This document shows, in pieces, positions 65 to 14,933 of a DNA stretch of 16,237 nucleotides. The stretch covers positions 1 to 16,237 of the forward strand of contig JBEKGO010000043.1 of the NCBI GenBank assembly GCA_050012755.1. Reading direction: 5' to 3'. The notes below the pieces were generated by a model. The model ran no database searches, was not told where the DNA came from, and worked only from the letters and a program-made list of their open reading frames with translations. The stretch is from Candidatus Bathyarchaeia archaeon (lineage in GTDB: Archaea > Thermoproteota > Bathyarchaeia > Bathyarchaeales > Bathycorpusculaceae). How positions within the stretch are numbered: position 1 is the first letter of the stretch; every line of letters starts with the position of its first letter. Position numbers and translations under genes: made by a program.

Positions 65-312
65 GTTCAAGCTGCTTTTTTAGCTCAGGGCTTGATTTCT
101 CTGCAGGCTGCGGCTCCACGCGTCTCTATGCGTCTCCCCCCGTCTCGCTGCGTCTCCTCGCGTCCCCGACAGTTATTGACGGTTTTTTTGCGCAGTCTTT
201 GTACTTTGTCTTTTGGATTGCTTTTTTGGTTTAAGGTTTGATTCGTTTGCAGGTTGAGTCAAAAAAAGTCCAAAAAAGTCTAAATAAGTCCAAAAAAGTT
301 CAGGAAGAAAAG
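65..312. repeat. Modular repeat cluster A: two head+decamer-array modules
   Basis: Heads TGCTTTTTT-N20-TGCAG at 73-106 and 219-252. Decamer arrays at 111-170 (cgtctcNNNN-type, 6 units) and 257-306 (agtccaaaaa-type, 5 units). Homologous to 8329-8554. Confidence 0.85.
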
Positions 313-408
313 TGAATTAGAGAGAAGAAAGTGGTAGTAGTGATTCCATATTTTGTCTTTCCAGCTATTTTGGTTCTTTGTGTTTTGGTTGTGAAGCAAT
401 TGGGTCAT

Positions 409-1914
409 TTATATTATGAGCAGGAATAGCCAGATAGGAATTATTGTTATGTTTTTGCGTGTTTCAAGGGTTTCTTTTGACAGAACTATTGTGTTTGATG
501 ATGTTGAGGCTTTTGTAAAATCTATGACCCCGAAGATGTCTCTTGTTGTTATTTTTGGTTGATATTTGACTTCGATGGCAGCTGGTTTGGGTAGGCCTTC
601 GTTTATTACGAAGTCTACTTCTCGATCCTTTTTTCCTCTCCAATACATAACTGTGTTTTCGTAATTGAATAGTTGTTTTTGTTCACATAGTCGGAATGAT
701 AGTCTGACCATGTGATCGGCTGCGATTCCTTCAACGAGGATGCCTACTTTTTCGGGGTCTTTTAGAAAATCAAGTGTTGATTCAAATGGTTGTTTTCCAG
801 TGGTCCATGCTCGCATTGCATGTAAGAAGAATGGATCTGTGAAGTGGATTTTCTTTTCTTTTTGGTATGCCGGTTTGTTTCGGCTTGTGTCGTAGCAGTG
901 CAAGTATAATAGCACGAAGCTGTCGCTGAGGGTATCTACGTATTCGGCTACTGTGTTGTGGCTTGCAATGTCTGTGCCTTGTCTAAGGGTATTCCAGCCG
1001 ATGGGGTTTCCGAGGGTTTCGATTATTCGGCTCATGACTTGTCTTAGGTATGTTTCTCTTTTTCCCCATTTGGCAAGGTCTCCCAACACGACGTCTACAT
1101 AGGTTTTGTAGATACTTTCAGAGATTTCGTTGTGCTTTAGGTATTCATCTGCAACTCTTGCTATTCCTCCTGTTAGCAAGTAGTTTTGGAAGAGGTTCTT
1201 CAGGTCTTTTGAGAGGAAAGAAAGTTCTTTGATTTGTTCTGGGATTTCTCCCTTTAGCAAAGATAGGAAAACTTGCTTTCTATTTTCCCAGGAGAGCATA
1301 TTCTGTTGTTTTAGTGTGTTTTCCACGTCTTTGTTCAAAGTCTCTGCATATTCTGCAAATTTCATTGGAAGCATTATCTTGTCGGGTGTATCTTTTGTTA
1401 TCCCGCGTCTTCCTGGCAACTTTTCTGAGGCTTTCTTGATGTCGAGTGTGTGAGAACCTGTCAAAATCAAGGTTGTTTGTGCTAGGCTGCCCTTGTCGGC
1501 TAAGAATTTTATTGCTTTCTGCCAGTCCTTGACTGAAGAAACTTCATCGATAAGAATGTATGCTCTTTGTTTATTGTCTGGTCTTACGGTGTCAAGATAA
1601 GAGGATATTGTTTCCGCAAGCATCTTTGGATTGTCTATAAGGTCACAAGTATAGTAGAATATGTTTCTTGGTGGCACATTACGTTTTAGAAGATCTTTTA
1701 TCATGTCTTTGATGAGCGTTGTCTTTCCAACTTGGCGCGGTCCTCGGAGGGTGTAGATTACATCTGCTTCAAGGTCGAACGTATACTTTATCCGAGGATC
1801 CCAGCATACTTCGGATTTTGCCAAAGCCATAATGTTTTTGTCTTTTGATATATCCTCGGGTTTTCTCCACCAAGGATTCTGATCCATCAGTTCAATATTT
1901 ACCGACATAGCCAT
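409..1914 (-). CDS. ATP-binding protein, AAA_14 + DUF4143 (COG1373-type) with C-terminal PD-(D/E)XK-like motif
   Basis: N-terminal NPWW, Walker A GPRQVGKTT, Walker B LIDEV, LTGS, LPGR, YLLTGG, KKIHFTDP, and C-terminal YWR...EVDFV...AIEVK, all typical of this family. Confidence 0.92.
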   Translation of the reverse strand: MAMSVNIELMDQNPWWRKPEDISKDKNIMALAKSEVCWDPRIKYTFDLEADVIYTLRGPRQVGKTTLIKDMIKDLLKRNVPPRNIFYYTCDLIDNPKMLAETISSYLDTVRPDNKQRAYILIDEVSSVKDWQKAIKFLADKGSLAQTTLILTGSHTLDIKKASEKLPGRRGITKDTPDKIMLPMKFAEYAETLNKDVENTLKQQNMLSWENRKQVFLSLLKGEIPEQIKELSFLSKDLKNLFQNYLLTGGIARVADEYLKHNEISESIYKTYVDVVLGDLAKWGKRETYLRQVMSRIIETLGNPIGWNTLRQGTDIASHNTVAEYVDTLSDSFVLLYLHCYDTSRNKPAYQKEKKIHFTDPFFLHAMRAWTTGKQPFESTLDFLKDPEKVGILVEGIAADHMVRLSFRLCEQKQLFNYENTVMYWRGKKDREVDFVINEGLPKPAAIEVKYQPKITTRDIFGVIDFTKASTSSNTIVLSKETLETRKNITIIPIWLFLLII

Positions 1915-1927
1915 CTACTGAAAATAG

Positions 1928-1959
1928 ATTGACAGCTCGTTTATAAATAGCTTGTCAAT
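1928..1959 (-). promoter_or_regulatory. TATA box inside an inverted repeat, upstream of the AAA/DUF4143 gene
   Basis: TTTATAAA at 1940-1947, about 26 bp from the start at 1914 (suggests a leaderless mRNA). Flanked by ATTGACA (1928-1934) and TGTCAAT (1953-1959). Confidence 0.6.
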
Positions 1960-2173
1960 ACATTGCCAGGCTGTTTATTAACCCAAAATAGGTTTATTCC
2001 CGAACCTTTTAGCCAACTATGCATCACTGTCTGGATCTACTTCGTTTTCAACGCTTCAATGCTGTTGAGATTAAGAAAATATCCACATCCAGACAAATTG
2101 GGGAAACGGATCTCCGTAACCCTCTGCTCCAAAAATCAAGAATAACATTGGTTCTTAGCAAGAACTCTTTTGA

Positions 2174-5152
2174 TTAATCGCAGAGACAGTGGTAGTCGCA
2201 TTGGGTGCATTCCCAGCTTCCTTTTTTGGGTTCAAATGCTGCTGCCTTGATTTTTGTCGCCATCTCCGCGATCTCTGTTTGCATTGCCTCGATGGCTTGG
2301 TTTTCGGGTTCAAAAAATACTTTCTCGTTGGACCGTAAGAACCAGTTTCCCACCTTTAATGGATGACCATCAGGATAGATTTCTTTGACAGCAAGTGCAT
2401 AAACGAGCAGTTGCATGTCCTTTTTTAGCTCGTTCAGGGATGGCGCCTTTTTGCTTGTTTTGTAGTCTACCACAGTGTAACCGAGTCCATCTTTGTCTAT
2501 GCGGTCGATTCTCCCCCTAAGCCGTATGTCGCCAATTGAGGTTTCAAACCATCGTTCAATGTCAACAATCTCCGTTTTGCTCTGAGTCTGCTCTTCGAGG
2601 AAAACCTTCAAAATAGCTTTAGCTTCGTTATAATCTCTTTTTTCATCTATCTTTGACTTGTAGCCTTTTGGATCCCAGAACTTCGCGAGAAGCTCCTCAG
2701 CCACAACTTCGTTGATTGTTTTTCCGTCTTTCTGCATACTGGTTAATTGTTCTGCAATGCTGTGTAGTGAAGAGCCGAAATCAAAGTAGTACCTGGGCTT
2801 CTCTGGAATCTTCATAACATGGCGATACTGGTAGAGTCTGGGGCATTTCTTGTAGCCGACAAATTGGGAGACACTAAAAACATGGTCCTCAGGAACTGTA
2901 ATTGGTTCTTCAACAACTTTTTCCAATTTTGAGTAATCGGGTTCTTCTATTTTGCCAATTAAATCTGCTTTAATGTCCAAGTCTTTGTTTGCTGACTTGG
3001 CGAATAGAAGCACATCCTGTATAGCTTCACTAAATTTTCCGGTTGTTAAGTTTGCAATTACTTGTTTCATGATACGTGTCTGAGTTTCATTTTCTTTTGT
3101 TGTCGATTCAGCAGGCAATTCTTGAGAGTCAGCTTGCTGGAAGTCTAAGTTTTCGTTTTGCTGATATTTTATTTCGGTTAGGAATCTTGATGGTTTGGAG
3201 TCTGTTTTGTTTTCACCATATCGCTTTGCATAGGAGATAATTAGCTTCTCTTTTGCGCGGGTTATGGCTACGTAGAAGAGTCTTCGTTCTTCTTGGATAT
3301 GTAGTTCTTTTTCGTCGAATTGGGATTGGATACCTTTGAGCAGTTCTTTTGGTATCGCGAATTTGTCTTTTTGGTAGGTTGTTGGTAGTCTACGCTCGAT
3401 AAGGTCTGGAATTATAACCACTGGGTATTGCATGCCTTTGACGCCGTGGATTGTTGAGATAACTACGGCTTGTTCTTCGAGATTTTTTTCTTCAATTTCA
3501 AAGTTTGAGGCAAAAGAGAGGTAGTCTGTGAAGTCTTCGATGTCATTGTCTGGATAGATGCTGTTGAATTCCTCTGCGAACTCGTAGAACTGGTTTAGGA
3601 GCTGTATGTTTCGATTGTTTTGGAGTGCTATCTCGTACTTATAGAACTCACGTTCAAAAAGCAAGCTATGAATTAGGTCAAGTGTTCGGACCCTCTTTTT
3701 TGAGGCAATCATGTCAGAAATTGTCTGTTTGGCTTGGAGGAACTTGAATTTATCAACATCTATTTCGCTTATGTGGTCAAATACTTCGTATAGTGAAAGG
3801 TCATTTTGTTCTGCATAGCAGTTGAATTTGCATATCTCAATCTGCTTGATGCCGTAATTGTTTCGGTTCAGAATCCTTACGATTTCAGCGTTGTTTTCTA
3901 ATGGGTTACTTATGACTTTTAGGTACGCTGTAACATCTTTTATTATTGGCTCTTGGAAGAAGCCTGTCTCGCCAACAAAGTTAAAACGAATAGCTTGCTT
4001 TCTGAATGCTTTGATTATTGGCTCAGCAGTCGACCTTCGCCTGCAAAGTATCGCTATTTCCTGTAAGGGGTATTTCTTAAGAAGCTCCTTGACAGTTTCA
4101 AGAATATAGTTTGCTTGAGAAGAGTCGCTTGGAGTCTCGACGACTGCTACTTTTTCTCCGTCTGGGTTTGTTGTGAAAAGTTTCTTTATTGTTCTTTCAG
4201 GGCTGTTCTCTATTAGTCTGTTGGCGACTGCTACGATTTTTTTGGTGCTGCGGTAGTTATGCTCTAGTGCTTTTTCAACGTAGTTAGGGAACATTTTTTT
4301 GAATTCTGATATGTTGGTTAGGTAGGCTCCTCGGAAACGGTAGATGCTTTGGTCGTCATCTCCTACGACCGTAATGTGGCCGTGTTTGCTAGCTATCAAG
4401 TGGACTATCTGCAGCTGAATATAGTCAGTATCTTGAAATTCGTCTACTATGACAAACTGGAATTTTTCTTGATACTTTTTTAGAATTAGAGGCTTGCTTT
4501 TGAGTAGGTTGTATACTGTGCAGAGCATGTCTCCAAAATCAAGCATGTTGTTCTTAATTTTGTAATCTTCGTAGGCCCGATAAATTTTTAGTATGTCCTT
4601 TAGATTGTTCAGGTCATCAAGAGCTTCTTCATCGAGAGTGATTTTTTCCTGTTTTTCGATGTATTTTTGAATATCCTCTGGTGCGATGGATTCGTCTTTG
4701 CATCTTGATATGAATTTCGCCGTTTCTTCGGCTAATGTGTATGGTTCATGGTTGAATTCAAGATGCTCAATGCCGAAGCGGTTGATGTTCTTGGTCAAGT
4801 AAACTAGCTGAGCGGTATCAGTAATTACCTTAAAATTAGCGTTAAGTTTGGTGTTTAGAATGTTGTCCTGAATGACCTGGTTGCAGAAAGAGTGAAAGGT
4901 TGATATGCTCAAGTCCTCAGCATTTCCAACCATGCTAATGACTCTGTTCTTAAGATCCTCTGCCGCCTTTTGGTTAAAAGCTAAGGCAAGTATGTTCTCT
5001 GTTTTGGCGCCCTGTTCGATTAAATAGGCAATTTTACTTGCCACCGTTAATGTTTTGCCTGAGCCCGCACCTGCTATTATTAGGAGGGGTCTTTCAATTT
5101 CTTTGACTGCTTCCGTTTGTTGGGGATTTAACTGCTCAAAAATGTTTGCCGT
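2174..5152 (-). CDS. UvrD/PcrA-family SF1A helicase fused to a RecB-like PD-(D/E)XK nuclease with 4-Cys Fe-S motif
   Basis: The frame stays open upstream of 5044 and encodes LNPQQTEAV (Q motif) and IIAGAGSGKT (Walker A). Also TFHSF, VDEFQD, VGDDDQSIYRFRGA, NYRST, TIHGVKG, EERRLFYVAITRAK. C-terminal CPR...GRIDRID...VDYKT...CTQCDYHCLC. The start is uncertain because no canonical codon exists; 5152 is the ACG 9 nt after AAGGAG. Confidence 0.9.
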   Translation of the reverse strand, partial: TANIFEQLNPQQTEAVKEIERPLLIIAGAGSGKTLTVASKIAYLIEQGAKTENILALAFNQKAAEDLKNRVISMVGNAEDLSISTFHSFCNQVIQDNILNTKLNANFKVITDTAQLVYLTKNINRFGIEHLEFNHEPYTLAEETAKFISRCKDESIAPEDIQKYIEKQEKITLDEEALDDLNNLKDILKIYRAYEDYKIKNNMLDFGDMLCTVYNLLKSKPLILKKYQEKFQFVIVDEFQDTDYIQLQIVHLIASKHGHITVVGDDDQSIYRFRGAYLTNISEFKKMFPNYVEKALEHNYRSTKKIVAVANRLIENSPERTIKKLFTTNPDGEKVAVVETPSDSSQANYILETVKELLKKYPLQEIAILCRRRSTAEPIIKAFRKQAIRFNFVGETGFFQEPIIKDVTAYLKVISNPLENNAEIVRILNRNNYGIKQIEICKFNCYAEQNDLSLYEVFDHISEIDVDKFKFLQAKQTISDMIASKKRVRTLDLIHSLLFEREFYKYEIALQNNRNIQLLNQFYEFAEEFNSIYPDNDIEDFTDYLSFASNFEIEEKNLEEQAVVISTIHGVKGMQYPVVIIPDLIERRLPTTYQKDKFAIPKELLKGIQSQFDEKELHIQEERRLFYVAITRAKEKLIISYAKRYGENKTDSKPSRFLTEIKYQQNENLDFQQADSQELPAESTTKENETQTRIMKQVIANLTTGKFSEAIQDVLLFAKSANKDLDIKADLIGKIEEPDYSKLEKVVEEPITVPEDHVFSVSQFVGYKKCPRLYQYRHVMKIPEKPRYYFDFGSSLHSIAEQLTSMQKDGKTINEVVAEELLAKFWDPKGYKSKIDEKRDYNEAKAILKVFLEEQTQSKTEIVDIERWFETSIGDIRLRGRIDRIDKDGLGYTVVDYKTSKKAPSLNELKKDMQLLVYALAVKEIYPDGHPLKVGNWFLRSNEKVFFEPENQAIEAMQTEIAEMATKIKAAAFEPKKGSWECTQCDYHCLCD

Positions 5153-5254
5153 CGAAACCGTCTCCTTTCTTAGAAAACCAAGCTATCAATGGGTGCATGC
5201 ATCTATGATAAAAGAATTCCAGATTTAACTTTTTGCAGTTCAAGCTTCATGCAA

Positions 5255-5280
5255 ACATGCAAAAGATTTTATCTGCATGT
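5255..5280 (+). promoter_or_regulatory. BRE/TATA-like element flanked by an inverted repeat, in the divergent promoter region
   Basis: ACATGCA (5255-5261), AAAGATTTTATC, TGCATGT (5274-5280), about 30 bp upstream of the TTG at 5304. Additional CATGC copies at about 5196 and 5248. Confidence 0.45.
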
Positions 5281-5303
5281 ATTGACTTATACTGGGGTCT
5301 GTC

Positions 5304-6434
5304 TTGTCCACGAAGTTGTCCAATGACAAAATGATTAAACTTGTCGAAAGAATCAAAGCCTTTTCTCAATCAGATCTAGGTAGCAGTGAAGCAAACACAA
5401 AAAAGAGGATAATTGAGCCCATGCTAGATATGCTTGGCTGGGATTGTTTAGGCAATGAAGTTCAACTTGAGTATCCAATTCAAGTGGGTTCGTCTTCTGT
5501 TCATGTCGACTACGCAATGCGCCTCGAAGGGAAACCGGTGATTCTTGTTGAAGCAAAACCGTTTGATGTTAATCTTTCTGCTGATTGGGCTTCCCAAATA
5601 ATTAGTTACGGAAAAATTGAGGATATTCGCTGGGTTGTACTTACAAACGGAAAAGTTGTAAAGATATTTGATACGAAAGCTGGAAAAGGAGAAAAAGAAT
5701 GCCTCATCACTGCCATTGACTTGCCAAGGTTACCCAGAGATTCAATCGCTTTGAGCCTAATCTCTAGAGAATCTATACTGACAGGTGAGATTGAGTCTGC
5801 AGCTAAAAGATTAGCGACTACAAAAGAGGCTATTAATTCTCTGAGCCAACGAAAAGGCGAGATAGCATCAGAATTCAAGAAAATTCTTGTCAAAATAACA
5901 GGACCAGGAATTGAAGACCGACTCGAGACTATTTCAAAGAAACTTGCAGATATTGCGGTTCAATCCTTTGAGAGTGAAATAGAATCAGTTCCGTCTCGCA
6001 CAACGGATAAAACAGTTCAGTTGTTACCAAGACATTCGCTTTCTTCCAAGCCACCAGGTGAAGTGGTTTTGTGTCCAAGCAAAATTGGAGGAGTTGAATT
6101 TCTCAAAAAGTATAACGCTTGGGGCTTTGTCAACATGAATAGACAGGTTCCATATTTTGCTCTTTACGTAGGAGACCCAGAATCTTCGGTTCTATACTTT
6201 GGGGAAGTCGAGTCGATTACCAAACCGATAACATCCGAGGAGGACATTCAACGAATAGAGGAAAAAGACATTGAAAACTTTCCATCTGGTAAAAGAGCGA
6301 TTCACCTTAGACAAGGAACCTTAGTGAAATTTACCGATCCAATACCTCTAAAGAACAAACGGATTGCTCCGCGGGGTCTCAGATATACCACATTAGACAA
6401 ACTCATAAACGCAAATTATGCTGAAGATCTTTAA
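5304..6434 (+). CDS. HsdR_N-like (type I restriction R N-terminal) PD-(D/E)XK nuclease fused to a probable PUA/EVE-like domain
   Basis: SEANTK...IEPML..LGW, LEYP, VDYA...VILVEAK and VLTNG match HSDR_N_2. There are no helicase motifs. The C-terminal YFALYVGDPESSVLYFGEV...PIPL...PRGLRYTT fold assignment is inference. Confidence 0.8.
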   Translation: MSTKLSNDKMIKLVERIKAFSQSDLGSSEANTKKRIIEPMLDMLGWDCLGNEVQLEYPIQVGSSSVHVDYAMRLEGKPVILVEAKPFDVNLSADWASQIISYGKIEDIRWVVLTNGKVVKIFDTKAGKGEKECLITAIDLPRLPRDSIALSLISRESILTGEIESAAKRLATTKEAINSLSQRKGEIASEFKKILVKITGPGIEDRLETISKKLADIAVQSFESEIESVPSRTTDKTVQLLPRHSLSSKPPGEVVLCPSKIGGVEFLKKYNAWGFVNMNRQVPYFALYVGDPESSVLYFGEVESITKPITSEEDIQRIEEKDIENFPSGKRAIHLRQGTLVKFTDPIPLKNKRIAPRGLRYTTLDKLINANYAEDL

Positions 6435-6465
6435 TTCAGAATAAGAAATTCAGGCGAATGGTCCT

Positions 6466-6614
6466 ATGTGGCCTTGTAAGAGTTGTGGACACGAAAACAA
6501 AGAAGAATCGGTAATGTGTGAATTCTGTGGTGTGTATTAAGATTCGACGAAACAGGCGATTCTGGCGATAACAAAGACTCAGAGGACCTGTTTTTTGACG
6601 ATGAATGCCTGTAA
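6466..6614 (+). pseudogene. RanBP2-type zinc-finger micro-protein, frameshifted before an acidic tail (or a 24-aa CDS at 6466-6540)
   Basis: 6466-6540 reads MWPCKSCGHENKEESVMCEFCGVY*, matching W-x-C-x2-C-x3-N-x6-C-x2-C-G. AGGCGA lies 8 nt upstream. A shifted frame continues VLRFDETGDSGDNKDSEDLFFDDECL* to 6614. Confidence 0.65.
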
Positions 6615-6679
6615 ACACTCAAAACAAGCCACAATATGTAAGACCTTTTTCAGCGAAAAGAAAACTATTGTGAAAGTTG

Positions 6680-7261
6680 TTACCATTCATCGCGTTTGCT
6701 TTCTGATTCTTTTTTCATGGTTTCTTCGATTTCACGGTAAACTTTTTTGTCAGACTTGGAAACCACCGCTAAAGAGGGTTCTCCGAAGCTTTTCACAATT
6801 GGAACTTTAATCAGTCTGAACTCTCTTGTCTGTGGAACATATTGCACAGTAACCTCTTTTTGGGTAAAGCAGAGTTTTTCTCCATCAGACCACAACTCAT
6901 ACATCTCAACTCTAATCGGGTAGGCTCCAGCAGCTATTCCCTTCATACCCAGCACAAGCGGCAACTCCAGCTCATCAGCCGACAAAGGACCCTGAGTGAT
7001 CCTAATTAGGCGCGAACCGATTCGTTGGTTGTCAAACCATAAATCCAAATTCACCTTTGAAAACGCAGACTTTGACGGATACAGCTTGAACCCGACTTTA
7101 AGCGCTAACTCATCCTCTCTTATGACTGCCTGGATTTCAATTATGGTTATTTGCTTTTGCTGAACAGGTTTGTTTGGTTCTTTTGCATGAACATTCGGCA
7201 TATTGTCTAAAGTAAGTTGCTTGTGCGCTTTGAGATTAGGCGATATCTTTGTTTTGCCCAC
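6680..7261 (-). CDS. Hypothetical protein, beta-rich and possibly Ig-like
   Basis: 193-aa ORF with GTG start 4 nt after GGTGA. Alternating hydrophobic strands and a GAYPIRVEM motif. No family recognised. Confidence 0.7.
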   Translation of the reverse strand: MGKTKISPNLKAHKQLTLDNMPNVHAKEPNKPVQQKQITIIEIQAVIREDELALKVGFKLYPSKSAFSKVNLDLWFDNQRIGSRLIRITQGPLSADELELPLVLGMKGIAAGAYPIRVEMYELWSDGEKLCFTQKEVTVQYVPQTREFRLIKVPIVKSFGEPSLAVVSKSDKKVYREIEETMKKESESKRDEW

Positions 7262-7320
7262 GAATTCACCTGTCCTCTAATTTTAATGATTTTGGCTTCG
7301 ATTTCATTGAGTCTGGATTC

Positions 7321-7582
7321 ATTTATAGCGTTTAAAAGCTTTTTCAGGATTATGCATGATGCTTTTTTGTCTAAGGGTTTATTTTCATTTCCGCATTTAG
7401 GCCAGTAAATACATTGAGGGGCAACCGTCTTTTCGCAATTATCAATCAGCTCGAAGGTTCTATGTTTTGGTAGAGGTTTTCTGAAATCCCTATACCGCCT
7501 TCAAAGCCGTCATATATAAAAATCGTTGCATTCCCAGTGTCTGGATGCAGAGGCGTTGACAAACCGCCAATGTCCCATCTGT
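7321..7582 (-). pseudogene. Degenerate C-terminal fragment (DUF1998 Zn-binding domain) of an MrfA/Hrq1-type DEAD/DEAH helicase
   Basis: Minus-strand translation RWDIGGLSTPLHPDTGNATIFIYDGFEGGIGISENLY, a frameshift, then TFELIDNCE...CIYWPKCGNENKPLDKKAS. No helicase core and no start codon. Confidence 0.85.
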
Positions 7583-7638
7583 TGATAAATTATGGTATTG
7601 CAAGGGTAAGAATGTTTATTTGTCTGTTTGACTAATGG

Positions 7639-7665
7639 TTATCTGATAATTAATATGTCAGATAA
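7639..7665 (+). promoter_or_regulatory. Putative VapBC autoregulatory operator
   Basis: Inverted repeat TTATCTGA (7639-7646) / TCAGATAA (7658-7665) spanning the ATG at 7655. TTATCTGATAA is itself symmetric. Confidence 0.45.
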
Positions 7666-7888
7666 AATAAAAGTCGGTGTGCGAGGTCAAGTCGTAATTC
7701 CCAAGAAATACCGCAAGAAGCTCAACATCGAAACCGGAATCATTCTTGAAATAAACGCAACAAACGAGGGCTTGTTTTTAAAACCCTTCAACCCAGCAAG
7801 CGAATTGAAGGGACTAGGAAAAGGCATCTTCGGAGACCCAATCAAATATCAAAAAAAGCTACGTGAAGAATGGGAATGCCCACAATGA
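7655..7888 (+). CDS. vapB: AbrB/MazE/SpoVT-family antitoxin
   Basis: KVGVRGQVVIPKKYRKKLNIETG is the AbrB signature, and the protein ends LREEW. Directly upstream of a PIN gene. ATG 7655 is preferred over TTG 7628. Confidence 0.92.
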   Translation: MSDKIKVGVRGQVVIPKKYRKKLNIETGIILEINATNEGLFLKPFNPASELKGLGKGIFGDPIKYQKKLREEWECPQ

Positions 7889-8301
7889 AAACGGCCCTGG
7901 ATACAAATATTCTCATTTACTATCTGGAAGGAATCGAACCAGAAGCAAGCAAAATAGGAAAAATACTAGAAGGATTTATGAATTCCGAAAATGAAGGATT
8001 GATTTCGACAATAACCGTTGCTGAAATCCTGACCGGCTTTTACTTAGCAGGCGACATAAACAGAGCAGCAAAAGTAAAAAAGTTACTCATCGACCTAACT
8101 CTTAACAGCTTCAAGATAGTGCCAGTTACTTTTGAAATCGCTGATCTAGCCGCCAACTTACGAGCCAAAAAAGGCGGAAGGTTACCTGACGCCTTAATTT
8201 TAGCCACCGCAATCAACCAAAAAGCAGACGTTATTTATTCGCAAGACAAAGACCTACAACGGTTCAATAAAGAAATCAGAGTCTGCCAGCTCCCAGAATA
8301 A
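7885..8301 (+). CDS. vapC: PIN-domain ribonuclease toxin
   Basis: ALDTNILIY, ISTITVAEI, LPDALILATA and YSQDKD carry the PIN acidic residues. ATGA overlap with the antitoxin stop at 7885-7888. Confidence 0.95.
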   Translation: MKTALDTNILIYYLEGIEPEASKIGKILEGFMNSENEGLISTITVAEILTGFYLAGDINRAAKVKKLLIDLTLNSFKIVPVTFEIADLAANLRAKKGGRLPDALILATAINQKADVIYSQDKDLQRFNKEIRVCQLPE

Positions 8302-8328
8302 CTAAGTTAAAAGGTCTTTTTTATGGTT

Positions 8329-8745
8329 ATTTCTTTGCAGGCTGCGTCTCTACGCGGTTTTATGCGTCTCCTTGCGGTTCTATGTGGCTCTGCCCGTCTC
8401 GCTGCGTCCCAACAGATATTGACGGTTCTTTGTGCACTCATGTTCTTTGTGTTTTAGGTTGCTTTTTTAATTTGGGGCTTAAATCTCTTGCAACCATAAT
8501 CTTAAAACATCCCAAAACATCTAGAAACATCCCAAAAAATCGCAGGCAGAAAAGTTCAATTCGACGTTCACTCAAAGGCTGAAGGCAGTTTTTGCGGGAG
8601 TTCTGTTGTTTGTGTTTTAGGTTGCTTTTTTGGTTTAGATTTTGGTTCGTCTGCAGGCTGCGTACAAGGAAGTACACCAAAGTACAAGCACGTACACAGA
8701 AGAACAAACACGTAAAACTGCGGAAATTAAGTTATTGACGTTTTT
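8329..8745. repeat. Modular repeat cluster B: three head+decamer-array modules
   Basis: Partial head ending TGCAGGCTG at 8344, then 7 cgtctc-type decamers (8345-8414). Head 8460-8493, then 5 catcccaaaa-type decamers (8498-8547). Head 8623-8656, then 6 (a/c)gtaca-type decamers (8661-8720). Confidence 0.85.
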
Positions 8746-8967
8746 GGACAAGAGAAGATTAGAATTTAATTCTTCTTTGTGTCTCATCTTTTTCAACTAC
8801 TTTTATTCTCTTTGGTTCTTCTCTTCTATGTTAGCACTTACTCCGCTCTCTTACTCCGCTCAACCATGACACCCGCGAAGAGACGTCACAACACATAGAA
8901 AAAAGAGGAAAATAGAATATCTCCAACTAGGCGGACAAGAAAAGTGGGTGGACCCAGCCCTCTCCCA

Positions 8968-9145
8968 ATGAGGGGATTAAAGATTGATGATTCAACTATC
9001 TTAACAGGTTTTCAGCTATTCCACAGATTCATTTGACCCCTTGAGCATTGGATGGAAAAACTCCGAGCAAAGCATGCGATATTCTGATTCAAGGAGACAA
9101 CAAGTGGAAAACCCTAATAGGAACGCTAGTAAAAAGAAGAATTAG
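8968..9145 (+). pseudogene. Degenerate C-terminal remnant of an archaeal DDE-type (IS6/integrase-core-like) transposase
   Basis: MRGLKIDDSTILTGFQLFHRFI*PLE, frameshift, LDGKTPSKACDILIQGDNKWKTLI, frameshift, NASKKKN*. This resembles the HNxxRPHxxLxGxTPxxxxG...KW tail of these transposases. One stop and two frameshifts. Confidence 0.75.
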
Positions 9146-9160
9146 CAACTTAAAGAATTA

Positions 9161-9919
9161 CTACGGAAACTTTACAAAAGACGCGGCAATTTGTTTTAGG
9201 AAGTCATCAAGTGGCTTATCAATACTATCAATGTCTTCTAGTGCGACAAGAAACCACCCTTCTTCCACCATAAAGAATCGCTTGACGATTAAAGGCACAT
9301 TATCCACATCCGAGAATGGACAAGGTGGCTTACTAGGAGACTGCCAAGGGCAGGGCTTTTCCAAAGTGGCAATGCAGTGCCACGCACCTTTTCCCCAAGG
9401 GCTCAGAAGTGGGCAATCTTTCTTTAAATTGCTAACCTCAGAATCCACAATGTAGCCTAAAGTAGGAACACTGCATTCTGAACAACCCTCCAGTTCAAGC
9501 AAATTTGTTCTCGAAGAACGAAGATTATTAGTTGAACCCTCAATTAATGAAGGCAAAATTTCTTTGTAAAGAAGAGATTCAAAAAAGGGCATTTCAAGAA
9601 GGCTTCTGACGGTTGGTGGAAAAAGTTCAGCTATTTCATGAAAGTTTATGGGGTCCTTTGGAAGGTAGAATCCTGAACCCATAATAGCCATAAAGCATTT
9701 TGAAGCTACTTTTCGAGCTACCGTGTGCAAAATAATCTCTCCACCATTCGGGTAAGGACCAAAAATCCCTATTTTCGGAAATTTACCAAAATTCTTTTCT
9801 ATGTTGAGCTTTATAGCTTCGGCTGTAAGTTTGGTAATTATCATTCTAGTAATGACATTTTTCATTTGTTTATTAATTTCGCGCAACATTTCAGTAAGAG
9901 GAAGCATCGAACTAGACAT
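9161..9919 (-). CDS. Hypothetical protein, possible Rossmannoid (NDT/TIR-like) fold with Cys-rich insert
   Basis: 252-aa ORF with a TATA-like element about 25 bp upstream. Motifs KIGIFGPY, SRTNLLELEG...VPTLGY and CPL...HC...CPW...CPF. The fold is inference. Confidence 0.65.
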   Translation of the reverse strand: MSSSMLPLTEMLREINKQMKNVITRMIITKLTAEAIKLNIEKNFGKFPKIGIFGPYPNGGEIILHTVARKVASKCFMAIMGSGFYLPKDPINFHEIAELFPPTVRSLLEMPFFESLLYKEILPSLIEGSTNNLRSSRTNLLELEGCSECSVPTLGYIVDSEVSNLKKDCPLLSPWGKGAWHCIATLEKPCPWQSPSKPPCPFSDVDNVPLIVKRFFMVEEGWFLVALEDIDSIDKPLDDFLKQIAASFVKFP

Positions 9920-10598: not shown

Positions 10599-10659
10599 TG
10601 GCACATGTCTGTGCTAAAGGCTTTTCAAATTGACCATGCAATCTCTGAACTACTTATTT

Positions 10660-10700
10660 TCAGGTTGCTTTTTTGTTTTGTTGCTGAATTCGCTTTGAGG
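10660..10700. repeat. Degenerate solo copy of the repeat head
   Basis: AGGTTGCTTTTTT (TGCTTTTTT at 10666-10674), N20, then TTGAG instead of TGCAG. No clear decamer array follows. Confidence 0.5.
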
Positions 10701-11168: not shown

Positions 11169-13823
11169 ATGAGTCACTTACTAGTCGAAACTTCATCAAC
11201 GCGACTCATAGATAACATCATTAGCAGAATGGAGTCACCGACGGTGGGCCCCAGATACCACATATTGGGATCAAGAGGATTTGGAAAATCAACACTCCTA
11301 AACTATATGGCTTTTGAACTTTTCAACAGTCTGGGCTCAAAGCTTGTTCTCCCAGTCTACTCAAGCATGTTTGGAACGGCCACTTCAGAGGAAGAACTCA
11401 CATTCATTTTCTTTAGAAGCTTGCTAGAAGGCCTCTTTGATGTCCCTGGGAGCCTTGACAACTTCAACCTTAAACAAAGATTTGAAGAAGTTTCTAAACA
11501 ACTGGCCTCTGCAAATAATGAGTACAAACAGGAATTAAGAGACTCGCATACTATTTCTATCGAATATGTTTACGCGGCATTTGAGAACCAAGTTGGTCAC
11601 CTTAAGAATTGGTTCCCTAGAATTGCATTTCTTGTGGATGGGCTAGACAAACAAGACACCAATTTAGTACTAAAATTTTTGAGAAATACCCAGGAGAGAC
11701 TAAACAGCTTAGTTGCCAAGTATAATCTCGTTATCGTGGACTGTGCAGATCCATCTTGGAGGGAAACTCTTGGAACAAAAGAATTCAGTGGAGTTCGAGG
11801 TTTTCAAATAAATCTTAGGGGTTGGACTGTCGCAGAGGTTGAAGCTCTCATAAAAAGCCGCCTACATACGTTCGGAATATTTGAAGTGCCTTTTGAAGAC
11901 AAAGCAATAGAAATGCTAGTTGAGGATTTTCAAGGTAATCCGCGAGAAATTCTTCAATACTGTACTACCCTTCTTCACTATGGAGCCTCAGAAAATCTTG
12001 GAACAATAGGGCACGGAATAGCCCGCGAAATAGTTTGGGGCGAAGGTTCAAAAGAGAAGTTTTATAAGTTCATTATAGAAGATGCCGAAGCAAGAGTTGC
12101 CTTTGAGAAGCTCAAAACGGTATATTCAGAGCGACAAATGTTCAATATCTTATCAGCTATTTATAACCAAAGGAATCAACGACTCTCACCAAACCTTGAC
12201 TACGAGGAACGATCGTCAGTCGGAGTCACTTTGACGGATGATCAATTCAAGCGTTTTTTGGATGTTCTCTTGATAAGAGGCTGCATTATAACTAAAATGC
12301 AGAGTTATATAGAACTCTCTAGCGATATAATGCGTTTGTTCAATTTTGTTGCAGGGCTTAAAGAATCATTGATTGCTTTGCCCGTCATAATTGGTGGTCT
12401 TGAGTTCAAAATTGATACAACTATTGAATTGCCCAAAGCCACTGTCGCCATCAAACAAGAAATCGAATACATTTTTGAAAAGCACCCAAATAGCTGGATT
12501 AATTATGCCAAATGCGGTGAAATGTTGTTGACTGACCCCCGCAAAAGAATAGAAATAAGCGAGTATTTTGGAGAAAACTTCAATCAGAAGTTATCACAGA
12601 CAATCAACCTTACCATATATGAGTTGTTGACCAAAGGCAAATTAATGATGGATGAAGAAACTCGGGAATATCGATGGAGACCGGGGTCGATCGATTTCGA
12701 ATTGGCGAACTTGATCAAATCAAAGAAAGTGCTTGATTTAATAGATTCCGCAAATGAATCTCTCAATGAAGAAAACTCTGACAAACTTAGGGAAGACTGT
12801 AAGTCTATCATAATAGTTTCTTTCTCAATGCTTGATAATCTTCTGGGTGGCAGAATTGGCACAACAGACTTACGGCTCATAATCGACTATTTGCAGGATT
12901 TGAACTTGAAAGTTGATAAACCTGTTCCGCTGGCTTTAGTCTTTAATTTTCTAAATGAACCCATAAAAGATAGAGCAGAGGGACAATTATGTCTTCAAGC
13001 GGCATTAGTCTATTCAAAACGAATCTTTGATGAAATTAATCGACTAAAGATATTTGAGGTACAGAATCAGGAAAAAATTAACAAATTGAAAGTGTCTAAA
13101 ATTGGGTGTTCAAAAGAAAAGGAACGTAAAAGGTTCAAAGAGTTTTTCTTGCCGACAATTGTCGAACATTATGGTGTTCTTGTAGACTATATGACCAAGT
13201 TAAAAATTTTAGAAGGAATATCTGATAGGATTCCTCAAGAACTTGCGGAGTTACAAGAAAACAAACAAATTCTCGCTTCCCAAGTCTATAAATGCCCTGT
13301 TTGTGGAGATCAGAATGCAACAATCTCGAACACAGTGGAAACCAATTTTTGCCTGAAGGATAAAGTACCTAAGGAATTTGTGAAAAATGCCTATGTTTTG
13401 TCGGCAGATGCTTACGAAACATGGACTGTTTGGATGGAAGAGTACACTCAATTTATTCTAGAACATCTTCCCATTAGATTTGTAGAAGCAGGTATCATGC
13501 TAAAGTCTTTGGATAGTACTAGTTTTTCAACTCCTGAAGAAATTGATCTTGCATTAGTCTTCAATGGGCGATTGATTGCTATCGAATGTATTGAAAAAGT
13601 CGATTTAACACCTCAAAAGAATGATATTCGTGATATATTATATAAAACACAAAAAATCGGTCTTTTTGACGCTGTAATACTCGTCTATGCTAACTGCAGT
13701 GATAGCCATTTCTTCGAAGCAGAGATAGCCAAAAATCAGAAGTTTCTAATTCCTATACAGATTGGCAATCCCAAAAATTTCAAAACTAATCTTTTTGCTG
13801 CACTTAAGTCTACAAACAAATGA
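11169..13823 (+). CDS. Large AAA+/STAND-like NTPase with Zn ribbon and C-terminal PD-(D/E)XK-like nuclease
   Basis: Walker A GSRGFGKST, Walker B FLVDGLD, GNPREIL, CPVCG...CLKD, and EIDLALVFNGRLIAIECIEK. The frame is open upstream to 11082. Confidence 0.8.
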   Translation: MSHLLVETSSTRLIDNIISRMESPTVGPRYHILGSRGFGKSTLLNYMAFELFNSLGSKLVLPVYSSMFGTATSEEELTFIFFRSLLEGLFDVPGSLDNFNLKQRFEEVSKQLASANNEYKQELRDSHTISIEYVYAAFENQVGHLKNWFPRIAFLVDGLDKQDTNLVLKFLRNTQERLNSLVAKYNLVIVDCADPSWRETLGTKEFSGVRGFQINLRGWTVAEVEALIKSRLHTFGIFEVPFEDKAIEMLVEDFQGNPREILQYCTTLLHYGASENLGTIGHGIAREIVWGEGSKEKFYKFIIEDAEARVAFEKLKTVYSERQMFNILSAIYNQRNQRLSPNLDYEERSSVGVTLTDDQFKRFLDVLLIRGCIITKMQSYIELSSDIMRLFNFVAGLKESLIALPVIIGGLEFKIDTTIELPKATVAIKQEIEYIFEKHPNSWINYAKCGEMLLTDPRKRIEISEYFGENFNQKLSQTINLTIYELLTKGKLMMDEETREYRWRPGSIDFELANLIKSKKVLDLIDSANESLNEENSDKLREDCKSIIIVSFSMLDNLLGGRIGTTDLRLIIDYLQDLNLKVDKPVPLALVFNFLNEPIKDRAEGQLCLQAALVYSKRIFDEINRLKIFEVQNQEKINKLKVSKIGCSKEKERKRFKEFFLPTIVEHYGVLVDYMTKLKILEGISDRIPQELAELQENKQILASQVYKCPVCGDQNATISNTVETNFCLKDKVPKEFVKNAYVLSADAYETWTVWMEEYTQFILEHLPIRFVEAGIMLKSLDSTSFSTPEEIDLALVFNGRLIAIECIEKVDLTPQKNDIRDILYKTQKIGLFDAVILVYANCSDSHFFEAEIAKNQKFLIPIQIGNPKNFKTNLFAALKSTNK

Positions 13824-14105: not shown

Positions 14106-14933
14106 CTAACGTTGAAAGTTGAGTTTAATATCTTCTGGTTCATAATTCGTAATAAAAAGTTCTTCTCCTTCAATTGCTTTTTTCTTGTGCATCCCGTTAT
14201 ATTTCATTTTCCAAGGGTAAATATACGCAAAAGAAAACAGCTCATGTATCAATTCTGAATCATCGCAGGTAATTAGCCAAGTATGTTTGCACTTTTTTAT
14301 TTTTTCTGCAAAATCCTGGTGGTCAAAAAATTTATTAAGATTACCTTTTTTACCGTATAAAGGAAAATTTCTTGCTTTCCAATAGGGCGGGTCCAGAAAA
14401 ATAAAAACATTTTTGCCTTCTTCAAAAAGAAGATTCTCGTAACTTTGGTTGGTTATACTTACATTATTCAAGAGCTTTGCCAAGGGCCAAAGACCTTCAA
14501 TTTTGGACATTGTGAAACGTTTCTTAAAAGATTCAGCAGAATACCCACCAGAATCTGTTGTGCCAGAATAAGTTGTTCTATTCAAGACATAGAATCTTAA
14601 TGCTCGACCAAAAACTCCAGAGGCATTTGAATTTACAAGTTTAGAATATAAGGCTCTGCCGTCTTGGCAGCCGTTTTTAATTCGAGTAATAGCGTTAATT
14701 AACGAAACCGGATCATTTTGCAGAGTTTTCCAGAAGCAATAAACATCCTGATTTAAGTCGTTTAATTTACACTTTAATTGAGGATTTTGGTGTTTAAAAG
14801 CTACGAAAACAGAGCCACCGCCCAGAAATGGTTCCCGATACTCGGTGAAACCATGCGGAATAAGTGGAAGGATCTTCTTTATTGCCCGTGCTTTTCCTCC
14901 AGGATACCTTAGTGGGCTGGTGATAGCGGTCAT
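14106..14933 (-). CDS. Dam-family (D12 class) N6-adenine DNA methyltransferase
   Basis: SPLRYPGGK, EPFLGGGSV (motif I), NDLN and FLDPPY (motif IV). Target specificity cannot be determined here. Confidence 0.93.
   Translation of the reverse strand: MTAITSPLRYPGGKARAIKKILPLIPHGFTEYREPFLGGGSVFVAFKHQNPQLKCKLNDLNQDVYCFWKTLQNDPVSLINAITRIKNGCQDGRALYSKLVNSNASGVFGRALRFYVLNRTTYSGTTDSGGYSAESFKKRFTMSKIEGLWPLAKLLNNVSITNQSYENLLFEEGKNVFIFLDPPYWKARNFPLYGKKGNLNKFFDHQDFAEKIKKCKHTWLITCDDSELIHELFSFAYIYPWKMKYNGMHKKKAIEGEELFITNYEPEDIKLNFQR

Follow-up and report, generated by a model that had tools for sequence, protein, structure and literature searches.

What is a strictly phased, highly repeated element doing between the genes of an uncultured archaeon? 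The question is raised by a stretch of 16,237 nt (contig JBEKGO010000043.1, called the window here at its full length) from a Bathyarchaeia assembly, which is the genome referred to below and carries the handle G000. A preliminary description, made from the letters of the window, had noticed modules that consist of a constant 'head' and an array of ten-nucleotide repeats and had not recognised them. We propose, with a probability of about 60%, that the head is a promoter and the array an MraZ-like operator of a diversified family of PhS018-like DNA-binding proteins. None of the modules in the window is accompanied by a gene of this family; complete units are found elsewhere.

Four full heads of the form TGCTTTTTT-N20-TGCA are present at 73-105, 219-251, 8460-8492 and 8623-8655, as had been described, and a head model built from sequence only (R1) scores them at 50-56 bits. 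The same model recovers the partial head that had been seen to end at 8344 and the degenerate one near 10660. All copies lie on the + strand, also as observed before. The profile consensus extends the head beyond the core first delimited: the conserved unit measures about 72 nt and includes a T-rich leader of about 30 nt on the 5′ side. Decamer arrays begin at head position 39, corresponding to bases 111, 257, 8345, 8498 and 8661, and each contains five to seven decamers in strict 10-bp register. Identity at lag 10 is 0.50-0.73 in the five arrays; the mean of the window is 0.27, and 20 shuffles reached at most 0.44-0.54. For each of the five, Tandem Repeats Finder also lists periods of 10 and 20, in agreement with the module-specific, phased decamers of the preliminary description. 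In four of the five arrays, identity at lag 20 is at least as high as at lag 10. The features of the modules are as follows.

1-42, + strand: 3′ remainder of a decamer array of the AGCAAAC/GTAAAC type, truncated where the contig begins
43-72, + strand: T-rich leader of module A (model positions 1-30; R1 match 46-113, 51.7 bits)
73-110, + strand: head of module A, with TGCTTTTTT, TATA-like GCTTGATTT and TGCAGGCTG
111-170, + strand: array A, six decamers CGTCTCnnnn (lag-10 identity 0.63)
173-182, + strand: TTATTGACGG, an optional element 45 nt 5′ of the next head
189-256, + strand: leader and head of module B (R1 match 193-259, 56.5 bits)
257-306, + strand: array B, five decamers AGTC(A/C/T)AAAAA (lag-10 identity 0.73)
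366-388, + strand: solitary T-rich leader fragment with no head after it (R1 match of 11 bits, model positions 6-28)
8314-8344, + strand: partial head, shortened in its middle and with TGCAGGCTG as its end, immediately past the PIN stop codon (R1 match 8326-8348, 11.6 bits)
8345-8414, + strand: array C, seven decamers CG(T/G)(C/T)TCnnnn, of the same family as array A (lag-10 identity 0.50)
8416-8425, + strand: ATATTGACGG element 5′ of the next head
8430-8497, + strand: leader and head of module D, with a canonical TATA-like GGGGCTTAAATC, ending in TTGCAA and not in TTGCAGG (R1 match 8434-8492, 50.1 bits)
8498-8547, + strand: array D, five decamers (C/A)ATC(C/T)nAAAA, CATCCCAAAA-like (lag-10 identity 0.61)
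8593-8660, + strand: leader and head of module E (R1 match 8597-8663, 51.4 bits)
8661-8720, + strand: array E, six decamers (A/C)GTACAnnnA (lag-10 identity 0.54)
8732-8740, + strand: TTATTGACG after the last array, with no head following
10658-10695, + strand: degenerate head without array, downstream of a helix-turn-helix (HTH) gene (R1 match of 17.2 bits, E 4.6e-5)

The contig starts inside a module, because bases 1-42 are the tail of an AGCAAAC-type array with the same letters as module G000:C60:6243; the resemblance that had been suggested between bases 1-26 and the end of the array at 8661 is replaced by this assignment. Shared tails had been described as well. They are indeed present, as CAGG(A/C)AGAAAAG near 301 and 8543 and as TTATTGACGG, ATATTGACGG and TTATTGACG at the places listed, but TTATTGAYRG is not a general module end. 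It is rather an optional element located 42-46 nt 5′ of 25 heads, and 25 of its 60 occurrences in the genome are placed in this way. The layout is not that of clustered regularly interspaced short palindromic repeats (CRISPR), as had been stated: heads are 146-190 nt apart with at most five in a row, and the 'spacers' are recurrent decamer repeats. The arrays were also considered as coding sequence and rejected as such, stop codons being frequent in the A-rich arrays. Open reading frames (ORFs) 1-234 and 53-241 cross array A because this array is GC-rich.

The genome (2.41 Mb, 65 contigs, 41.6% G+C) contains 43 exact matches to the head pattern, one of which, on contig C30, is a chance match; a reversed control pattern gave none. 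With the head profile, 130 copies were found in 76 loci, of which 41 are single, 23 double and 12 carry three to five modules, at the module spacing given above. In-phase decamers were defined as having at least four of six core letters in common, with the frame fixed at head position 39, and 124 of 128 modules contain three or more of them. Across the genome the arrays comprise 5-12 boxes and are uninterrupted. At least 14 array families recur, among them AGTC(A/C/G/T)AAAAA, CGTCAC, AGCAAAC, CGTCTC, TGTAAG, TGTGT and AGTACA, and further AGGTT/AGAAC mixtures, CATC, CGTTT, TGACA, TGACT, CGTCC and others. The genome scan thus yielded what the preliminary description had named as support for a real system, namely many copies with a conserved head and swapped arrays. 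AGTC is the commonest family, with 24 modules that lack a gene (orphan or solo modules in the following). The CGTCTC family of arrays A and C has nine modules, plus two filed as CGGCT, and the type of array D occurs in five near-identical modules. In contiguous decamers of orphan arrays, taken without filtering, columns 1-4 carry 0.97-1.63 bits and columns 7 and 9 only 0.44 and 0.52. The best conserved column across the orphan families is position 2, which is nearly always G (1.63 bits). Many arrays of the genome also show a 20-bp super-period, which would fit binding in pairs. In three loci of other Bathyarchaeia (L119, L101 and L105), perfect TGTGTCGGGA repeats were observed, at least 12 in a row in L119, which suggests recent expansion by slippage.

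An assembly artefact, which had been named as a possible refutation, is excluded by independent metagenome runs. At least half of the sequence words of 7600-9200 are present in at least nine peat or wetland metagenome runs, two of which are marked as possible sources. In an independent run, contigs end where the modules lie, and the depth climbs from about 10 to 136-476 on reaching the heads; one contig of this run skips exactly one module, from 8483 to 8652. The dispersal of the modules in many copies without a gene accounts for the interruption of such assemblies at the modules.

Head and array are linked to a family of small genes. Several arrays are followed, within 10-40 nt, by an ORF that begins with (M/L)PLTxxVTFK and belongs to a family with a length of 92 amino acids. 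In the first data set, 22 copies were detected with a profile of this ORF, and every copy with upstream sequence is preceded by a head and an array. The gene set was extended by protein search; 80 of 307 metagenome loci were fetched, resulting in 68 full-length genes. Among the 61 of these with at least 200 nt of upstream sequence, 53 have a head match on the 5′ side, and the others show a divergent head and three or four boxes, followed by AAAAGGAG and the start codon. Another genome of the genus, G392 (eight contigs), has 84-86 heads and nine intact genes, all nine directly after a head. Three members of the genus without heads (G403, G394, G346) lack an intact gene, and a single gene, which is broken, was found in a genome with five heads. 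In 16 of 22 instances no ORF follows the gene on the same strand; in the other instances an unrelated small ORF was found. The type of array E occurs together with the gene as a complete unit in L206 and in L284 of G392.

Scanning three members of the protein family against Pfam with E values up to 1 gave no match to MraZ or SpoVT/AbrB and only a sub-threshold match to Arcadin_1, and 120 listed homologues carry no precomputed Pfam domain. These relatives are mostly unnamed or 'hypothetical', five of them being named 'PrlF-type regulator/antitoxin' by the Joint Genome Institute (JGI). The family profile matches PDB entry 2glw (PhS018 of Pyrococcus horikoshii, 92 residues) at residues 8-70 with an E value of 0.0034 (hmmsearch, 2glw_A). 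An AlphaFold2 model with a predicted local distance difference test (pLDDT) score of 91 contains two beta-beta-alpha-beta repeats and shows a predicted single-chain swapped-hairpin barrel. A Foldseek search with this model ranked 2glw first (template modelling (TM) score 0.76, E 1e-4, 92 columns), followed by MraZ chains, including the promoter complexes 9r4j and 9sz7 (probability 0.99, TMq 0.44-0.50, TMt 0.33-0.35).

The sequence of the boxes covaries with the protein encoded behind them. From 54 full-length genes with a head match, those with fewer than four decamers, three with weak arrays and identical proteins were dropped, leaving 45 gene-array pairs. The array core correlates with protein residues 1-34 (Mantel r 0.47, p 2e-4; 45 pairs, shared descent uncorrected). 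Given residues 35-92, the partial correlation is r 0.30 (p 2e-4), whereas the reverse partial correlation is r 0.13 (p 0.06). Mutual information peaks at residues 10, 16 and 18, with the highest values at 16 and 18; these residues lie in the first hairpin just before the conserved VQ(I/V)PK. Residue 18 is R with GTC cores in 19 of 25 cases, T with GTT in all six and K with GAC in five of nine. It aligns to the Arg of the G-R-I-I-I-P motif in PhS018, which we take to be the Arg that contacts DNA in AbrB-type proteins. No variation occurs at W27 and G61, and R26 and R62 are nearly invariant, with R62, the second-repeat equivalent of residue 18, present in 42 of 45 proteins. Comparison of one orthologous locus (C2:16212 and L082) shows a joint change of array type and N-terminal protein half, whereas flank and C-terminal half have remained alike.

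Among the closest known parallels is MraZ. According to a 2026 cryo-EM study of MraZ on its promoter (PMC12957436), MraZ recognises four GTG(G/T) boxes set apart by six-nucleotide spacers, that is with a 10-bp period, and the DNA-binding motif of one subunit lies in the major groove of each box; the transcription start site is in the first box, and MraZ represses its own operon. The units described here share with MraZ the two AbrB-like repeats in one chain, predicted to form a swapped-hairpin-type barrel, as well as direct-repeat boxes with a core of 4-6 nt and a 10-bp period just 5′ of the regulator's own gene, beginning next to the promoter, which in the present units is putative. On the other hand, the protein does not belong to the MraZ family by sequence (no Pfam match), and with 92 amino acids instead of about 140-150 it is missing the oligomerising helices of MraZ. 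The archaeal gene stands alone, with no mraW or fts (dcw) genes after it, and there are 5-12 boxes in at least 14 specificities instead of four boxes in one. Furthermore, the unit of head and array occurs about 100 times per genome without the gene. PhS018 has the same length of 92 amino acids, the same single-chain fold and a weak but significant profile match, but is only 21% identical to the family. To our knowledge, neither a DNA target nor a function is known for PhS018. AbrB, SpoVT and MazE have the swapped-hairpin barrel and a G-R-x-x-I-P-type motif in common with the family, and autoregulation through sites at the own promoter is typical for this class. In contrast to the fused repeats and long unidirectional arrays found here, where no toxin gene follows, those proteins are homodimers of one repeat and often have a toxin partner. 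Contiguous short direct repeats 5′ of the binder's gene, bound cooperatively, are also known from omega repressor heptads and ParR iterons. The likeness consists in the many contiguous short direct repeats upstream of the gene of a small protein, but the omega and ParR proteins are ribbon-helix-helix proteins of plasmids with partition or copy-control partners, whereas the present family has another fold and is chromosomal and dispersed.

Taken together, each module would be a cis-regulatory cassette. The head would be an archaeal promoter region composed of a T-rich stretch, an element resembling a TFB-recognition element and TATA box (BRE/TATA), and TTGCAGG, and the decamer array, which starts 13 nt after the TATA-like element, would be the operator. 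Each decamer would be one box, made up of a core (positions 1-6), in which G at position 2 is near-universal, and a spacer (positions 7-10). These boxes would be read by the 92-residue AbrB/MraZ/PhS018-like proteins, one per box, along one face of the helix. Since the protein's own gene follows the array, the complete unit is probably autoregulated like mraZ, and the product would repress its own gene. Paralogues would have diverged in step with their boxes, so that many pairs of protein and operator arose. As solo cassettes without the gene, the copies in the window would belong to a group that presumably multiplied, was shuffled head to head into tandem clusters and came to be inserted in many intergenic regions, in a few species of a single Bathyarchaeia genus. 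The preliminary description had offered protein-binding arrays as one of its two suggestions. We favour this suggestion as operator boxes of an MraZ/AbrB/PhS018-like protein, but not in the iteron, centromere or chromatin-positioning form that it had been given.

A promoter function of the head is suggested by comparison with other promoters. In homologues from other families of the order, a AAAGCTTAAATC-type element lies about 13 nt before three to seven phased boxes. This element matches the tRNA-Gly and tRNA-Val promoters of the genome, e.g. AAACCTTAAATC and ACAGCTTAAATT, and the heads of the window's genus align with it, head positions 19-26 reading YTTRAWTY; some heads carry AAAGCTTAAATC itself. 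On these alignments the head is best read as a putative promoter and not as an RNA handle. An SD-like (Shine-Dalgarno-like) motif was found for 30 of 56 genes, and the transcripts of these genes must therefore begin in or before the array. With its T4-T7 runs, the T-rich leader would act as an archaeal terminator of transcription arriving from upstream. A strict role as promoter of neighbouring genes was considered too and is ruled out by the counts of orientation given below; moreover, glmM keeps its own promoter downstream of a module.

Solo cassettes have no conserved place in the chromosome. They are found in all kinds of intergenic regions. Next to the second cluster of the window lies a MazE/PIN gene pair with orthologues of 75-78% identity in many genomes of the genus, and no head was found beside the orthologous pair in five of five relatives. 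Likewise, no head lies within 1.5 kb of an orthologous aconitase-like gene in eight of nine relatives, where the flanks of the corresponding G000 cluster are 10-15 kb apart. For this cluster (G000:C5:31535-31717, locus L230) the flanking genes are 10-15 kb apart and also inverted in G430, G410 and G392; the L230 cluster therefore coincides with a rearrangement or deletion junction. The gap between the preceding stop codon and the promoter of glmM is empty in four relatives, holds an AGTCA orphan in G000 with the glmM promoter intact downstream, and in two other relatives contains a GCGT-type module with a gene remnant. Because the same module type sits between different neighbours, modules appear to be exchanged at their heads. 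No recombinase or transposase was found that would account for the spread. As to terminal inverted repeats (TIRs), only pairs of T-runs and A-runs and one 12-nt pair with 83% complementarity were detected, and comparison of the filled and empty glmM sites revealed no target duplication; the end of a miniature inverted-repeat transposable element (MITE) or insertion sequence (IS), another possibility named beforehand, is thus not indicated. TTATTGACGG was tried as a target duplication or att core and rejected: it lies 42-46 nt 5′ of 25 heads, but on both sides of only three of the 76 clusters. The 12-nt pair, 8297-8308 and 8725-8736, brackets the second cluster of the window, its right arm overlapping TTATTGACG, and may be due to chance. 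Like repetitive extragenic palindromes and bacterial interspersed mosaic elements (REP/BIME) and MITEs, the modules are intergenic, occur in high copy number and as mosaic or tandem arrangements, and are gained and lost rapidly between relatives. They differ from those elements in that no palindrome or hairpin, no terminal inverted repeat and no target duplication was seen, and in that a phased array is tied to a specific protein family.

Several observations weigh against a promoter and operator of a dedicated protein. Genome-wide, 123 of 130 heads have no gene, four have an entire gene and three a gene cut by contig ends, and at other Bathyarchaeia loci 84 of 111 heads have no gene. Four intact paralogues of the genome lie on the minus strand at C17:24257-24535, C2:15848-16126, C14:16118-16393 and C53:6748-7026. 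The genome holds four gene types compared to at least 14 array families, and many orphan families are without an intact cognate gene in the same genome. For instance, the near-complete G392 has about 17 TGACAT arrays and only a broken gene of that kind, and its families AATCT/AAGCTAGTTT (about 12), TGTCCC (about 10) and CGTCAAC (about 7) have no intact gene; for four families other than TGACAT, G392 has no gene of any kind. No gene-linked example of the CGTCTC and CATC arrays of the window was present in the data examined. The near-identity of orphans may result from recent copying and not from selection, and the covariation tests do not correct for shared descent. With regard to the head, a further TATA-like element precedes the ATG by about 27 nt in a GCGTT/CGACT subfamily, and the head is therefore not the sole candidate promoter. 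Runs of T5-T6 in some arrays would terminate archaeal transcription. Only 23 of 121 orphans have a canonical TATA-like element, compared to 24 of 48 gene-linked heads, these samples coming from different genomes. Crude ORF calls show no rule of orientation, with 38 downstream genes on the strand of the module and 31 on the opposite one. Contigs from RNA libraries covered only 7645-8214, within the MazE/PIN genes; as these are contigs, the bare parts say nothing. One contig matched a related GTACA array and comes from a run marked 'probably DNA'.

Some of these points would also be expected if the solo cassettes, although derived from operators, were selfish or decaying promoter-operator copies that are bound by nothing at present and spread by recombination between heads or by another mobility mechanism. 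The absence of orphans from the syntenic MazE/PIN and aconitase-like sites, the differently filled glmM site and the families without an intact cognate gene agree with such decay. The same is true for the TATA-like element, which is degenerate in 98 of the 121 orphans, for the gene remnants after 16 of the 111 heads at other loci and for the metagenome contig that lacks one module. However, orphan arrays keep their core letters and strict phase while the spacers vary, their 5-12 boxes are uninterrupted, and no transposase, TIR or target duplication was found, and we regard this explanation as unlikely. Simple gene loss in place does not account for the orphans, because tandem modules leave no room for a decayed gene. 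The opposite view, that the solo cassettes are a working genome-wide regulatory layer, with a dozen or more orthogonal repressor-operator pairs made of single-chain swapped-hairpin proteins and 10-bp-phased boxes in one genus, a portable cassette copied and shuffled among intergenic regions and a specificity largely set by two or three residues of the first hairpin (positions 16 and 18), is doubtful. Solo cassettes may be working binding platforms, regulated sense or antisense promoters, or decaying copies.

Two further explanations do without a DNA-binding regulator of this kind. Modules could be genes for small non-coding RNAs (ncRNAs), with the head as promoter and the T-rich leader of the following module as terminator. 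The array would then be transcribed into a repeat RNA without structure, which would either sequester an RNA-binding protein like a sponge or be antisense to a neighbouring gene. The promoter-like element in the head, the terminator-like T4-T7 runs with which the next module opens and the SD-bearing genes, which imply that the array lies within the leader in many complete units, are compatible with this, and 31 of 69 clusters, including both in the window, point into the 3′ end of a convergent gene. On the other hand, folding energies show no excess of secondary structure (mean z of the minimum free energy +0.11 in sense and +0.34 in antisense direction, 50 modules), and a scan of the window gave no Rfam family and no match to CRISPR direct repeats on the modules. 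Several array types hold T5-T6 runs that should stop transcription within the array, and the boxes covary with residues of a DNA-binding fold. An ncRNA origin is accordingly improbable in our view, and the ncRNA family with a constant handle, the second suggestion of the preliminary description, gains no support from folding on either strand. Still less can be said for a purely structural role, in which the arrays would bend DNA or position archaeal histones or other chromatin proteins without a sequence-specific reader, or act as iterons or partition centromeres. The period of 10 bp is one helical turn, several families have phased A-tracts (AGTCAAAAAA, CATCCCAAAA), and array lengths of 50-120 bp are within the range of archaeal histone multimers. 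But many families have no A-tracts (CGTCTCnnnn, CGTCACnnnn, TGTGTnnnnn), a specific core of 4-6 nt is conserved instead of a composition, and variation in this core goes along with that of a specific protein. In the window the arrays have no rep or par gene as neighbour, and 76 loci are far too many for origins or centromeres, which makes this role very improbable. Restriction-site decoys were considered because the cores CGTCTC, GAGTC, GTAC and GGATG equal known recognition sites, and were set aside: many families fit no site known to us, and the covariation with the protein accounts for the cores.

The proposed promoter-operator cassette ties a highly repeated element of uncultured Bathyarchaeia that had not been recognised to a protein family and to a testable mechanism. 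It proposes sequence-specific binding to 10-bp-phased boxes for PhS018-like proteins, whose structure was deposited in 2006 as that of a hypothetical protein, and would extend the way in which MraZ reads DNA to archaea. Covariation in the many natural protein-box pairs could show how swapped-hairpin proteins choose their sites, and orthogonal small repressors would be useful as parts. If the solo cassettes did form a working layer, sense or antisense transcription of unrelated genes would be under the control of these repressors, or the repressors would be titrated; a readable protein-DNA recognition code would result, together with a function for the long-orphan PhS018 fold. For prokaryotic regulatory DNA, it is unusual that promoter-operator cassettes should spread while their gene does not. 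In the literature searched, at the level of listings, neither the element nor a function of its protein family was found described.

The element is real, occurs in abundance and is lineage-specific. When one genome per species was scanned, at least 113 stretches with the head pattern were obtained, and 55 of the 80 matches listed are titled Candidatus Bathyarchaeota or Bathyarchaeia, with peat, bog and soil as sources. The head profile fits 87 of the 113 loci, and most of the pattern matches outside Bathyarchaeia do not fit it. The strict head pattern was found in nine of 401 genomes of the class, namely the window's own genome, seven more of the genus and, as a single match, one of another genus. 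The small-protein profile was likewise found in nine of 401 genomes of the phylum, all within the window's order. Large counts of the strict pattern are restricted to G000 (26), G382 (28) and G392 (20), and looser BLAST matches to the head are present in many more genomes of the genus. One contig titled as a metagenome-assembled genome (MAG) of Candidatus Acidoferrum (L021) carries a complete unit of head, AGTCA array and gene that is typical of Bathyarchaeia, and is probably mis-binned. A viral origin was rejected, as none of 17 pattern matches in IMG/VR fits the head profile. The contig L206 (IMG/VR, 29.9 kb) is the only one labelled viral with a real unit, consisting of head, AGTACA array and gene.

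In the window, the modules lie among defence-like or mobile-looking genes; the HTH gene upstream of the degenerate head is also part of this region. No rep or par gene was found among the window genes with Pfam. The genes are:

409-1914, - strand: AAA_14/DUF4143 ATPase
2174-5044, - strand: UvrD helicase fused to a PD-(D/E)XK nuclease
5304-6434, + strand: HSDR_N protein
6680-7261, - strand: ORF of 193 amino acids without Pfam match
7628-8301: MazE-type antitoxin and PIN-domain toxin, with an overlap of 19 nt
9161-9919, - strand: ORF of 252 amino acids without Pfam match
11169-13823, + strand: ORF of 884 amino acids without Pfam match
14106-14933, - strand: D12 (Dam-like) adenine methylase

Inside the helicase gene, 3224-3322 on the - strand gave a sub-threshold Rfam match to sRNA n00280 (39.5 bits compared to a gathering threshold of 65.2), which is probably conserved helicase coding sequence. 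Just past the second cluster, at 8837-8861, a perfect direct repeat of 13 nt, CTTACTCCGCTCT, is present in 1.9 copies.

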